DNA of 64,000 nucleotides from Eledone cirrhosa (GCA_964016885.1 OZ024741.1:332630001-332694000); one strand, 5' to 3'. Counted from the stretch's first letter, positions 55,912-63,479 are shown. Numbers and translations are program-made. Notes: generated by a model from the letters alone, not told the origin.

Positions 55912-55953
55912 TTATATATGAATGTATGTATAGTATATTTGGCAATATACGAA

Positions 55954-56006
55954 AGACTTCCACAGGACTAGAACTGTTTCATTCCGGAGAAATCATCAGG
56001 AAGCCC
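55954..56006 (-). ncRNA. Type I hammerhead-like motif with a non-cleavable GUG triplet
   Basis: Minus strand: GGGCTTC-CTGATGA-tTTC/tccg/GAAt-GAA-ACAG/ttctagtc/CTGT-G-GAAGTCT. Stems I-III all pair. Folded by hand. Confidence 0.65.
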
Positions 56007-56302
56007 TTACTTACTGTGGTTACCCCCGATTGAACTTGGGATAAACTTATATATATATATATATATACACACAATATATATATGTGTGTATATATAAATA
56101 TACACAATACATATTGGTGGACCAGCAATCACTCTTTAATCAGCTCTTAAATATATATATATATATATGCAGAGGTTATATTTAATTTGTTGGGATTCAA
56201 CAAGCTTAAACATTTTTATAACTGATATAAAGCACTCAACAAGTTAGTGGAGTAAATACACAATATATTAATAAATGGAAACCATATTTATAAAACCATA
56301 TT

Positions 56303-56368
56303 TATTTTATTATACATATTTCAAGGGCAACCAAGGCAAATTATGGTGCGCTTTCATCAGATAAAATA
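56303..56368 (-). ncRNA. Hammerhead-like motif in the inverted PLE terminal repeat
   Basis: Reverse complement of 59128-59193 with one substitution in stem II. Confidence 0.75.
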
Positions 56369-56411
56369 CAGATTTGTTTTATAAATAAATATTGACATAC
56401 CCGGAAAAAAG

Positions 56412-57781
56412 GACCATAAAAGAAATTTTGAAATTGAATTACCAGTTAGATTGATTGCACCATCTAAATCGAACCTTGGCATACTTAGCAAGAATATTTT
56501 AGATAGAATCATACCACAACTTAAGGAAATATCTAATTTAAAATTATGGAATGGGACTAATGAAGTTATTGACTAGTTTAAGGACATTAAATATAAACAT
56601 AACAATAAATTCATTCAATTGGATATTGCTAATTATTACTCATCTGTCACTCCTAATCTACTTAATAAAGCCCTTACATATGCATTTAAATATACAGATT
56701 TAACTAGCAATGAAATGCACATTATCTTAACTGCACGTAAAACATTAATTAAATTTAATCACCACCTTTGGACTAGAGCAGATAGGGATAACAATTTCGA
56801 TATCACTATGGGGTCATCGGACTCGGCGCAATTAACGGATCTTGTGGGGCTTTTTATTAACAATACTTTACATAGGAAAATACCGGAGATGACCGGTGGT
56901 TTATATCGTGACGATTTGCTATTACTTATTGAAAATAATAATAATTGTGAAATAAATAGGAAAAGAAAAGAAATTATACAATTTTTTAATAGCGTTAATC
57001 TTAAAGTAGAAGTAGAGAATAATTATAAAATAGTTAATTTTTTAGATGTAACTTTAAACCTTAATACTGGTTTTGATTATCCATTTAATAAAATAAATGA
57101 GAATTTAAACTATGTTAACTTTAATTCCAATCACCCCAGATCCGTTAAAAACACTATTCTAAATTCTGTGCAGCAACGTATTTCTAGAATTTCAGCGAAT
57201 AAAAATATATTTGAAGATAAGGCACAATATTATAACGAAGCGTTAGGCAGTGCAGGCTATAGTAATGAAATTAAATACATTGACAATAAGGATGTGCCAA
57301 TTAACCATAACCATAACTATAAATATAATTATAATAGGAAACCTTGCATTAACTCGAAAACCAAAATAAAAAATAAAAACTAGAAATATATTATGGTTTG
57401 CTCCCCCTTTCTCATATAGTATACAATTGTAATGTCAAAACAAATGAAAACTCCTTTAACTATGTCGGCTCTACTTCCACAGACTTCAAATCTCGTTTTA
57501 ATAACCATAAATGTTCCTTTACGAATATTGTTAAAAAATCTTCAACTTCTCTATCTAACTTATTATGGGACTTAAAATCCAAGAATATTAACTATTCTTT
57601 ACTTTGGAAAATTATTTCCAAAGCTCCTTCATACACTGCTTTATCCAAAAATTGCTCACTTTGCGTTGAAGAAATATTCTTTATACTAAAAAGTAAGAAC
57701 TCTATTAATTTGAGAAATAATTTATTTAGTTCCTGTAAACATCGTTTAAACTCAACTTTTAAATATATATATAAAATGTAA
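56412..57781 (+). pseudogene. Disrupted PLE RT/GIY-YIG ORF (stop, frameshifts, internal deletion)
   Basis: ORFs 56619-57383 and 57398-57781 plus upstream RT sequence with a TAG at ~56574. RNILWFAPPFS is joined directly to IVYNC. Confidence 0.8.
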
Positions 57782-59127
57782 TATATGATTTATCTCCTTT
57801 ACATAATGTTTTCTATATCTATATATGATTCATATATATTTAATTTACTTTCTATTATCTCTACCTCATATATATACTATATACTTTATATTATTACACC
57901 TATCGATAGATTATAAAATATAAAAATTTTTTTCTAAAAAATTTTTTTTATATGACTGCTTAAATTTTTTTTATATGACTGTTTGAAACTCCTCTAAGAA
58001 AAATTTTTATTGAAAAACTTACGGAAGGTTTTAGGAAAAATCTTTTGAAAATTCCTTTGAAAGATATAGAAAAACCATTATTTTCATACCTTCCAATATT
58101 TTTATATTTTTATATCTTCAAACGTTTTTAATATATATATCCAAATATGTGGAAAAACATATGATTTTTTAAAATAGGTTTTTTATATATATGTGGAATA
58201 ACCTATGGTTTATGCTTTAAATATATTCTTAAGATTAAAAATTTTTTTTTAACTTTATAGCAAGTAAATTTATGACTTCGTATAAAATAACATATGGTTC
58301 ATGTTTTAATTATATTCTTAAGATAAACAATTTTTAACTTTTTAACTTTATAACATTTAATCCTTGGAGTCATCTGAGATCTTAAAAAATCACTTCTAAC
58401 TTCCTTTACACTTCCTTACTGTTTTTATAATATAATTAAGTGGTTATTCCTTTGTAAACTCTCGTAAATTTTTCATAAATTTAGAATTATTTGGATGTTT
58501 AAATTTTGACTTACAACTTTTAATAAAATAAACTATACTAGATTTTCTCTAATGTAAAATACTATATATTTATTTAAATAATTTATAATCCTTAACATAC
58601 ACATTTAAACTAATTATTAATATTAAATTATTAAATTAAATCTTCAATATTAAGGCAAATTTTAATCTTTAATTTTGATTTCTAATTTTTAATTTTAATC
58701 TAATTTTTCAACCTATCATTATAAGTATTATAATCAAAATGTAATGAACCCTGCATTATAAATATTATTCTTCCACGTTAATCTTATTTCTTCTTTCACT
58801 TAGATATACTTACGCTGTGTATATTTATCCTTTGAATCTTATTTCTTCATGCACTCTATTTTCACTATCAATATATATAATCGTTCTTTCTTTCCTCTTC
58901 TATCTTTCTCCTTTCTTTTTTCCTCTCTCCTTTACATATCATCTTCTTCCAACAGTTTAATTTAAATAAACCGTTATCTTTTCAACGTTTCGGACACTCA
59001 TTTACATACTCACTCATAGCTTTGTATTACCCTCAATAAATGTACTATCTCCACTATCCAGGAAGCTCCAACCGTTAAGGCTGTCTTTTTTCCGGGTATG
59101 TCAATATTTATTTATAGAAAAAATCTG

Positions 59128-59193
59128 TATTTTATCTGATGAAAGCGCACCAAAATTTGCCTTGGTTGCCCTTGAAATATGTATAATAAAATA
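59128..59193 (+). ncRNA. Type I hammerhead ribozyme-like motif in the PLE 3' repeat (family H1)
   Basis: TATTTTAT-CTGATGA-AAGcGCACCAA/aatttgcc/TTGGtTGCcCTT-GAA-ATATGTAT-A-ATAAAATA: perfect 8-bp stem I, canonical core, short near-palindromic stem III, AUA triplet. Confidence 0.8.
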
Positions 59194-59250
59194 AATATGG
59201 TTTTATAAATATAGTTTCCATTTATTAATATATTGTATATATATATATAT

Positions 59251-61850: not shown

Positions 61851-61957
61851 TAATCGGATTTTCATCTGAAGATATCGTTCCCATGCCAACAACAAATATG
61901 TTACATCTTGGATTGCATAAGCGAACCATTGAAATAGTTATAATGAATAAACGATTT
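61851..61957 (+). ncRNA. Type I hammerhead-like motif with a ~58-nt stem II region
   Basis: AATCG..TTCAT-CTGAAGA-[tatcGTTC...GAACcatt]-GAA-ATAGTTAT-A-ATGAA..CGATT, followed by (TA)n at 61981. Confidence 0.65.
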
Positions 61958-62010
61958 ATGCAATATCAGTATCTTATTTAATATATATATATATATATAT
62001 ATATATATAT

Positions 62011-62560
62011 CTAAGGTGGGTAAAATTCCCGAGATCCATGGACGAGTTCTCTCCAGCGGTCTCTGTCCCTCATTATCGCTGCCATGTCCTGCATCTCCAA
62101 CAGACCAGTGTCTGTCCTTAGGGCATCAACATACGTTAACCTTGGTCTTCCTCTTCTAGTGTGTCCATGTAGGGGCTCCCAAAGGAGTACTGAGTGCAAT
62201 GTCAACTCTGGATGTCGGTGAACATGTCCAGCTAACCTCAGTCTCCTCTGTGTCACTTTTGAGCTGACTTTTGGGATGCTGCCATACAGCTCTGATGGGA
62301 TGACAGAGTTCTTTGAGATACTGGCTGGAGTGCTCCAGGGAGATACATTGGCTCCCTACCTTTTTATCATCGTAGTGGACTATTGTATGCGCCTTGCACT
62401 GGAGAAACACCAGGACTCTGGCTTTACTGTAGCACCGGCTCAGAGCAGGAGAGTTAGGGCGAAAAAGGTATCGGATGCTGAATTTGCCGACGACATAGTT
62501 GTGGTGACAAATACAGTGAAGGAAGCAGAGGATTTGATGCGGGAGGTTGAGACTGTGTCG
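62011..62560 (-). mobile_element. RTE-like LINE fragment with an inverted 5' segment, between (TA)n tracts
   Basis: 62011-62256 minus encodes the C-terminus (RRLRLAGHVHRH..VLLWEP..RGRPRLTYVD..DRDRWR). About 62257-62560 plus encodes the RT core (GVLQGDTLAPYLF, EFADD). Confidence 0.82.
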
Positions 62561-62580
62561 ATATATATATATATATATAT

Positions 62581-63015
62581 AGTAATAATAATAAATTTGA
62601 AGACTAAAATCCAAAGAGGGCTCGATAAGGATAAATATATATCAAATATATAAGAACCGTAGAGCAAATAATTATTAAAATAACAGATTAAAGTTTAAGC
62701 AAAGAATCGCTGCTTTCACCCTTAACGAGAACATTAGTCTACGACCTCTTTTATACCATAAACGTGGTTCTGTCTTTGCGCGTAATTGTTTTTCACCGCT
62801 CCTATTAATGACGTATTATATTCGTTTTTTCCCGTTCTTAGCCAGCGAACGTTTCCACGAACCAAAGTATCGTCTTCCTGTCTTCCTCCGGTTGCAACGT
62901 TTTTTGAAATATCCAGTTCTGCGTTTACAGATTGACTTTGTTAGTTTCAGAAGATCCCGTTAAGGGTGAAAGCAGCGATTCTTTGCTTAAACTTTAATCT
63001 GTTATTTTAATAAAT
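62581..63015 (+). mobile_element. Family H2 insertion with a longer sense segment and a complete CAGAAGA hammerhead-like motif (62927-63002)
   Basis: The left part is nearly identical to 59921-60068 (inverted end). The right part carries ACAGATT..AGTTT-CAGAAGA...GAAAGCA..TGCTT-AAACT..AATCTGT. Confidence 0.8.
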
Positions 63016-63030
63016 ATATATATATATATA

Positions 63031-63370
63031 TATAAAGAAAAAGGGATGAAATCGAAAATGCAACTGAAGTCTTATTATTTAAAAAAATATATATATTTAT
63101 TTGGTTCCTTTACCGGTTTCGCAGTTCTTCTGCTTTTCAAAAGGTGAGTTGAGATGGAGGGTCTGTGGTTTTTCTCACCCTCCATCTCAACTCACCTTTT
63201 GAAAAGCAGAAGAACTGCGAAGCCGGTAAAGGAACCAAATAAATATATATATTTTTTAAAATAATAAGACTTCAGTTGCATTTTCGATTTCATCCCTTTT
63301 TCTTTATACTTCCACTCGTGTAGGACACCTCGGTTATTTTTCATTTTGTAAAAAAAACCTCACTTTCTAA
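63031..63370. mobile_element. Fold-back insertion (family H5), ~130-bp arms, with a minimal U3-A8 variant hammerhead (63107-63144 minus; 63195-63232 plus)
   Basis: CCTT-TTGAAAA-GCAG/aagaa/CTGC-GAA-ACCGGT-A-AAGG on the minus arm. The plus arm has GAAG in place of GAAA. (TA)n on both sides. Confidence 0.82.
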
Positions 63371-63479
63371 TATATATATATATATATATATATATATATA
63401 TATATATATATATATATATATATATATATATATATATATATAAATATGGTTTAATATACATTATGTCAACACCATAACA

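Follow-up and report, generated by a model that had tools for sequence, protein, structure and literature searches.

The DNA analyzed here, called the window, is a 64,000-nucleotide stretch of Eledone cirrhosa (GCA_964016885.1 OZ024741.1:332630001-332694000), in which islands of sequence alternate with TA tracts between 55.9 and 63.4 kb. We propose that these islands are probably pseudo-long terminal repeats (pLTRs) of Penelope-like elements (PLEs), together with one tandem unit that lacks an open reading frame (ORF), all carrying predicted hammerhead ribozymes and inserted serially at (TA)n, and that many of the short islands are likely complete cDNAs of a capped 5′ RNA end. (TA)n is abundant across the window, and both ends of the insertions adjoin it. 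We distinguish ten insertions from nine families (A–H and J), the islands at 60024 and 62927 belonging to the same family E. A preliminary description of this region had placed a hammerhead-like motif at a series of sites, and each of these sites indeed holds one. Its count of at least eight families also stands, although the families are not all unrelated, as it had assumed, since two PLE clades are represented.

The window motifs are real, predicted type I hammerheads. A strict descriptor yields three exact-core matches in the whole window, all within this 7.55-kb region, compared with a mean of 0.14 in shuffled islands; none of 500 shuffles reached three. A second descriptor gave two exact matches (shuffle mean 0.02, maximum 1, 150 shuffles) and, when relaxed, eight matches (shuffle mean 0.6, maximum 4, 150 shuffles), of which six fall at sites of the preliminary description and two are noise. 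The comparison with shuffled sequence that had been suggested therefore places the motifs above chance, both descriptors having been composed after the region had been inspected. Could the motifs nevertheless be chance matches in AT-rich palindromic repeats? Folding-energy z-scores were not significant for the eight window copies tested or for any of nine sequences overall, the hammerhead models of Rfam were absent among the 150 matches listed of 223, where only hairpin-driven microRNA-type matches appeared, and two of the eight relaxed matches are noise, as noted. Conversely, no shuffle reaches the observed count, the excess recurs in background DNA (89 against 9, see below), cores are conserved among family copies and compensatory pairs are present. 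Chance is thus exceedingly improbable, and already refuted at the sequence level.

Conservation of the core is evident in most families. The CUGANGA core is kept in 34 of 39 copies of A, 15 of 17 of B, 16 of 17 of F, 12 of 20 of G and 10 of 11 of H. Family J keeps a U3-A8 core in all 44 copies and C keeps its core in 8 of 12, the C copies having been partly picked by core pattern. Family D has the core with an extra U after A9 in an alignment of 30 copies. The otherwise invariant U4 is replaced in E, where an A occupies position 4 in 37 of 37 copies and the other letters each remain below 5% in four sequencing runs. The window copies themselves are mostly damaged or partial: A carries G17, G carries G12A, the right arm of J has A15.1G, stem II of D is eroded and C is a half motif. 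The missing half of C was recovered by pattern search in other copies, where it lies upstream of the part that corresponds to 59331-59385. The full C hammerhead combines a U3-A8 core and a 5-bp stem I with a long stem II and a loop III that is palindromic; all three helices fold in a full copy, and the free position 7 varies between subfamilies. A type II topology for the C half was dropped, the core being absent downstream and the missing half lying upstream. A minus-strand motif in H was also ruled out, as its motif is on the plus strand. The cores of D, G and H were positioned by eye, from sequence and family alignments.

The covariation of stems among genomic copies that the preliminary description had called for was found in part. 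Pair counts covered A, B, D, G and J. Three pairs in stem II of B change in a compensatory manner among 35 copies (A-U 20/G-C 14, A-U 18/G-C 12 and U-A 27/C-G 8), as do two pairs of D among 24 copies (C-G 9/U-A 8 and G-C 10/A-U 9), one stem I pair of A among 44 copies (C-G 24/A-U 8) and one pair of G among 23 copies (U-A 10/C-G 7), whereas the stems of J showed no compensatory changes. A mismatch at the base of stem II is fixed in four families, U-U in A, E and H, and C-A and C-C in F. These mismatches may damp cleavage.

Each island is a dispersed repeat, with 375-1,914 first-look candidates per family in the genome search, 40 of them scored for each family. The links to PLE coding regions were established from the window and from loci elsewhere in the genome (L numbers). 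Family B carries a broken reverse transcriptase (RT) and GIY-YIG of its own between inverted pLTRs within the window, contrary to the earlier view that the islands are all non-coding. A full pLTR-ORF-pLTR copy of E was found in L301, with an ORF of about 2.1 kb containing one frameshift and (TA)n on both flanks. Family J lies about 1 kb after an RT-GIY ORF in L306-L308, three of the eight extended J loci (L306-L313). D lies downstream of a GIY ORF in L313 and L220, C downstream of a Hydra-type GIY ORF in L365, and H upstream of RT in L304 and L305. An extension into a PLE ORF is therefore seen for B, C, D, E and J, with RT following H, but A gave no link, G is ORF-less and F is connected only through a related subfamily. 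The suggestion that the islands might be non-autonomous derivatives holds for G, while most families are ends of autonomous elements.

Judged by their motifs, E is a Hydra-clade PLE, and B and C join it by similarity; H and F are probably Hydra as well. The L301 ORF of E has LRWRA (RWK-type) and SDKTG (DKT), a region missing from window B. The CxCX5C linker appears as CNCRNRVDC in L303, together with CKH; it is deleted in window B and broken in the C copy of L365. The endonuclease CxxC/CxH motif is represented by CSLC and CKH in window B and by CDLC in the E copy of L302. By the DKG motif of J and the linker of both, J and D classify as Neptune-type PLEs, Neptune and Nematis being taken undivided. 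Family J has ADKGS (DKG), CGRSNCGTC (a CX4CxxC linker) and YLDD, and D has the linker CTNRKCIIC (CX4CxxC), with RT not seen in D copies. A separate 409-aa ORF of J overlaps the start of the RT-GIY ORF in L308:15-3478.

These assignments place the islands next to published elements (comparisons with cited papers refer here and below to the accessible parts of their text). Minimal PLE hammerheads, the U3-A8 core, an extra base after A9, opposite-strand pairs and dispersed single motifs have been reported (PMC4209133), and the Hydra clade has been described with hammerheads and (TA)n targets, including the octopus family Hydra-1_Obim (Craig et al. 2021, PMC8557442, File S1). The idea that the nest is an undescribed system is accordingly not supported. 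Like E, B and C, the Hydra clade (PMC8557442), whose PLEs carry a C-terminal endonuclease, has a short single ORF with RW[K/R], DKT, CxCX5C, and CxxC with CxH, a hammerhead in the pLTR, a (TA)n target, an inverted 5′ copy and a one-sided tail. It differs in its tails of 30-40 bp, compared with 60-85 nt in the window families, and E stands apart by its fixed U4A core; neither 5′ stops spaced from a TATA box and marked by G nor a start within the ribozyme is described for the clade in the accessible text. Neptune-type PLEs (PMC8557442) resemble J and D in the CX2-5CxxC linker, DKG (J), a hammerhead near the 3′ end and a bias for microsatellites, whereas J differs by its U3-A8 core and separate upstream ORF (L308) and D by a tail of more than 200 nt. 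More generally, published PLE-type hammerheads share many divergent families per genome, a palindromic short helix III and mostly single dispersed motifs.

The 3′ ends of the copies were positioned relative to the core in six families (A, B, C, D, E and J), after removal of query-selected matches. All six have two preferred 3′ ends facing (TA)n: +110/+172 in J (13 of 16), +70/+155 in E (48 of 60 at +70 or +154/155), near +47/+122 in C, near +62/+126 in A, +108/about +190 in B, and +41 (two copies only) and about +256 in D. Contigs from an independent sequencing run have (TA)n loose ends at both E positions; in such a run the depth over the E hammerhead is about 40-fold higher than over the ORF start. 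In head-to-head pairs, each arm usually uses a different one of the two 3′ ends. By its anatomy, the stretch between the two ends corresponds to the PLE tail; in vitro experiments connect this tail with a pair of internal RT starts, on both strands of the cut target (PMC11167929). A short hairpin with a CTC/GAG stem was found 8-13 letters into six of nine tail or leader segments checked.

At the 5′ side, four families stop sharply. The stops were counted by hand in the first 100 listed matches per pattern. In C, 60 copies end 0-2 nt from a single A, 9 copies are intermediate and 31 continue (first 100 of 24,741 matches). In J, 31 stop within 4 nt, none is intermediate and 69 continue (first 100 of 5,752). 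Fifty-seven copies of A stop and 43 continue (first 100 of 997), while 70 copies of F stop and 30 retain at least four native letters (first 100 of 232). In A the boundary coincides with the first base of stem I, in F with that of the distal helix, and in J it falls 42 nt before the core. In C it lies inside loop II, and there the 5′ strand of stem II and a TATA-like box overlap. Among native copies, seven of eight in A carry TATAAA at -30 (-31 in the remaining one), as do 9 of 12 in J; in C, TATTTA at -29/-31 is present in 5 of 17, with a TATTCA variant in others. Reverse transcriptases copy the mRNA cap as an extra G. A non-native G precedes +1 in 38 of 57 junctions of A, or 23 of 42 when possibly templated cases are subtracted (p about 1e-7 against an 18% background). 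In F, which was tested after the idea had formed, the corresponding numbers are 29 of 70 and 21 of 62 (p 0.002, 18% background). We propose that the sharp boundary in A, C, F and J is likely a capped polymerase II start, predicted from sequence, and that the short copies are complete cDNAs.

Two other origins of the boundary were weighed. All islands could be ordinary random 5′ truncations primed from the 3′ pLTR, with sharp boundaries where RT stalls at hairpins or where particular microhomology joins are preferred. Published work interprets such copies as 5′ truncations (PMC4209133, PMC8557442), and this reading accounts for B, D, E and H in the window; moreover, junctions often use microhomology, and by eye a possible hairpin has its base at the J boundary, and stem I starts at the A boundary. 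However, truncation predicts neither TATAAA at exactly -30 in two differently built families, nor the excess of G in A and F, nor a stop in the middle of the C loop, and as an account of all the islands it seems unlikely. Alternatively, the boundary might be a 3′ splice site, belonging to a pLTR intron like that of Drosophila Penelope, or a position at which RNA is cut. Loop II of C does have a T-rich run and an AG near the boundary, the A boundary comes after GUC, a hammerhead triad, and the D. virilis intron ends at helix I (PMC4209133). Against this, no upstream exon is shared among the junction copies of A, C, F and J in the listed matches, C copies keep the AG and thus stop 2 nt before such a splice point, and both the spacing of the TATA box and the extra G agree with a transcription start. 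We regard splicing or cutting as very unlikely.

Several points nevertheless weigh against the start-site proposal and its PLE setting. The 100-match listings are ordered by coordinate and not randomly drawn. In E, 76 of 100 listed matches continue upstream, 24 stop at scattered near points, and none of 24 copies has a TATA at -30; F has only a TTTAAA-like stretch near -28. A scripted count of A on the loci is weaker, with G in 8 of 19 (p 0.012) and four native copies misfiled as junctions. No clear excess of G is seen in J (4 of 14 copies that keep the whole start) or in C (15 of 60, many of them possibly templated). Because RT may add C at any template end, the extra G marks an RNA end and not strictly a cap. 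The only characterized Penelope promoter, in Drosophila, has been reported to be internal and TATA-less (PMC2377424); a putative TATA and initiator (Inr) in a pLTR, plus junction palindromes, have been reported in PMC3846280. The link of F to an ORF runs only through the tail of a related subfamily, behind a Hydra-type GIY, and A has no ORF link in the genome loci examined. The compensatory counts go by subfamily, represent few independent events and ignore kinship. Finally, starts, caps and cleavage are all predictions.

The mechanism we envisage builds on features seen directly in the copies, namely family membership, ORF links, two 3′ ends, head-to-head joins, sharp 5′ stops and the association with TA. 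The RT-GIY-YIG protein would cut both (TA)n strands, as suggested by PMC11167929 and by the anatomy of the insertions. Each cut end would then serve as primer for reverse transcription from one of two positions within the RNA, with the segment between them forming the tail, and the two cDNAs would be joined through short homology. Priming in the 3′ pLTR would give variably truncated copies (in the window B, D, both E insertions and H). Conversely, priming in the 5′ pLTR or in solo-pLTR RNA would extend 50-250 nt back to the TATA-driven start and give stubs (in the window A, C, F and J). TA would remain on both sides of each insertion, so that rich spots form. As the start of C lies inside loop II, its mRNA would carry half a ribozyme, and the whole ribozyme would exist only in read-through RNA.

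A broader form of this proposal has, in our judgment, an even chance of being correct. Of the dispersed hammerheads, which number in the hundreds of thousands, a large share would be full reverse transcripts of the capped 5′ ends of PLE mRNA, made through the internal RT start in the first pLTR, with the promoter built onto the ribozyme. The C mRNA could then not cut itself and the ribozyme would act only on read-through or tandem RNA, which would point to the role of PLE hammerheads. That role and the origin of the many solo copies are open questions (PMC8557442, PMC11167929). Dispersed singles have earlier been ascribed to truncation, whereas many here end at the likely start site. If short copies indeed mark the start to the base, the promoter, the start and two priming sites could be read from the genome for each family, and C would provide a direct test, its ribozyme being whole only in read-through RNA. 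A close experimental parallel is Poseidon of Anolis (PAc; Frangieh et al. 2024, PMC11167929), in which, as proposed here, both strands are cut and extended and two internal RT starts bound the tail. Its target is also AT-rich, and its hammerhead is dispensable for insertion in vitro. PAc belongs to a different clade, and the accessible text does not address the 5′ limits of genomic copies.

The ORF-less unit is family G. It is a head-to-tail unit of about 340 nt, a distance that separates two hammerheads in L167 and again in L171, and 8 of 30 copies, the window copy included, are partial tandems with an upstream same-strand end. G thus has the structure of non-LTR retrozymes, whose monomers lack an ORF, measure 170-400 nt, are arranged head to tail and each contain a type I hammerhead. 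From its sequence, G is a non-autonomous retrozyme, unlike the other window families, and likely a hitchhiker among Penelope-type elements. A link of G to a GIY-YIG ORF in L153 and L315 was dropped, the ORF being part of family C. At 61370-61400 (-), upstream of the hammerhead of G, the octamer ATGCAAAT is followed by a TATA-like stretch. Tandem ORF-less monomers were not found in A-F, H and J, which are present as dispersed head-to-head stubs or ORF-linked ends, with C at L351 as the sole exception. That locus (G000:C2:356029904-356031745 region) holds a 299-nt head-to-tail array of the youngest C subfamily with seven complete hammerheads, and its unit extends from the likely start through the tail and the leader of the ORF and returns to the 5′ half of the ribozyme. 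The array looks like a retrozyme freshly born from a PLE. Animal non-LTR retrozymes (PMC7229834; Li et al. 2026, 10.64898/2026.07.22.740005), whose PLE origin is covered in the same papers, match the unit of about 340 nt in G and the 299-nt tandem of C; the remaining seven families differ from them in being dispersed head-to-head stubs and not tandem monomers.

It is possible, though unlikely, that the stubs in general are self-standing non-autonomous elements of this kind, either SINE-like (short interspersed nuclear element-like) solo pLTRs or retrozyme circles with their own transcription and a borrowed PLE protein. This is true for G, the L351 tandem with its seven hammerheads in the youngest C subfamily is consistent with it, and solo pLTRs keeping the TATA box could yield the same short RNA. 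Moreover, all 40 scored C matches share one palindrome center. However, unselected C copies have varied centers, and the shared center may reflect the query. Stubs that end at +1 have no TATA box, and B, C, D, E and J are ends of ORF-bearing elements. The window copy of C belongs to a young subfamily, with 40 of 40 scored matches 99-100% identical; a fixed-center master palindrome for C was abandoned in view of the varied centers of unselected copies. A circular unit was likewise considered for A, in which two copies run from tail to hammerhead, but a native upstream promoter region exists.

The start-terminated PLE ends proposed here are embedded in a genome rich in such elements. The background sample comprised 57 arbitrary 10-kb stretches (L244-L300, 570 kb), with the three neighbors L241-L243 excluded. 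It contains 87 insertions of the nine families, of which 67 lie at most 30 bp from (TA)5+, compared with 25% of random intervals; the piling up of hammerhead-bearing PLE termini at (TA)n in the preliminary description is thus upheld. A family-free scan of this sample detected 89 exact-core motifs, compared with 9 in shuffles. By eye they represent about 20 families, and up to nine motifs from several families occur in one stretch (L286). Extrapolated to the 3.0-Gb genome, this corresponds to 3.6-4.2x10^5 hammerheads, or 3.6x10^5 without 11 matches in L263 that represent one satellite and may be chance. Family E has 22,030 exact matches. The nest holds nine families in 7.55 kb compared with at most four of these in any background stretch, a comparison that is biased because the queries were derived from the nest. 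As the family-free scan gives a density in the window (3 per 7.55 kb) only about 2.5-fold above background, a special locus was rejected. The nest is a rich spot, ordinary in a genome full of such elements. About a dozen more recurring hammerhead families that are not in the window occur in L244-L300, including further U3-A8 cores, and one of the non-window families forms a 592-nt tandem in L258.

The extrapolated number, about 4x10^5, compares with thousands of hammerheads in earlier genomes (9,000 in Xenopus); up to 120,000 retrozymes have been reported in axolotl (PMC7229834). For octopus, a load of unclassified SINEs has been reported without mention of ribozymes in the accessible text (PMC13282606), and the numbers found here suggest that a sizable part of it could be PLE ends. 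We found no description of octopus hammerheads, nor of start-terminated or cap-marked PLE copies, in a literature search of mostly open-access papers. The kind of element is known already; what appears new from the present sequences are the sharply ending, likely start-terminated stubs and the predicted promoter inside the C ribozyme. Together with the fixed U4A core of E, a recently spread family that tolerates a change at an invariant core base, these are the parts that stand out, the locus itself being ordinary.

In the window, family A is represented by a head-to-head stub at 55944-56049 (-), with an inverted tail arm (56005-56049) and a hammerhead arm starting at the sharp 5′ point of the family; its core starts at 55999 (-), and the G at position 17 makes a non-cleavable triad. 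The Hydra-type PLE of family B spans 56168-59243 (+), its pLTRs flanking a broken ORF remnant and an AT-rich 3′ untranslated region (UTR). It consists of an inverted pLTR with tail (56168-56411), the remnant with a 5′-truncated broken RT (YRDD) and GIY-YIG (about 56412-57781), and a direct pLTR (59085-59243); the cores of its hammerheads at 56360 (-) and 59136 (+) are intact. Family C follows as a palindromic stub at 59254-59439 (-) with the 3′ half of a U3-A8 hammerhead and one arm with a 75-nt tail. Its half motif at 59331-59385 (-) lacks the 5′ half, and each arm stops within a few nt of the sharp 5′ point, which lies in loop II. The Neptune-type end of D at 59578-59905 (-) has its core at 59848-59842, the extra U after A9, an eroded stem II and a long tail. 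The first E insertion is a head-to-head pair at 59920-60233 with a tail on the left arm and the U4A core on both arms (60078 - and 60172 +).

Family F forms a head-to-head stub at 60442-60700 (+), with an exact core at 60600, two mismatches at the base of stem II and arms joined at the sharp 5′ point. The G unit at 61093-61516 (-) comprises about 1.3 monomers, with its core at 61295-61289 carrying G12A. The PLE end of H lies at 61520-61980 (+), with a hammerhead at 61853-61950, a core starting at 61860 and a long stem II mismatched at its base. The second E insertion, at 62579-63017 (+), has a short inverted tail arm, a longer direct arm and the U4A core at 62948. The Neptune-type palindromic stub of J at 63037-63368 (+) has a U3-A8 core on both arms, intact at 63140 (-) and with A15.1G at 63199 (+), and a 62-nt tail on the right arm. 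The (TA)n target tracts between insertions are at 59440-59534, 60234-60439, 60701-61093, 61981-62010 and 63370-63447. Another J copy, represented by its 3′ UTR and pLTR, comes directly after the last of these tracts and runs from 63441-64000 into L241:1-796; it retains a TATA box, an exact-core hammerhead and a tail.

Between the larger islands, at 55913-55944, 56100-56150 and 59541-59570, lie very small end fragments of G and other repeat families. The window also contains RT fragments of non-PLE long interspersed nuclear elements at 15379-16650 (+), 42342-42797 (+), 55392-55912 (-) and 62011-62560, the one at 15379 carrying a PHD-type finger. A protocadherin-type exon of 807 aa with at least five cadherin domains is located at 1021-3444 (+).

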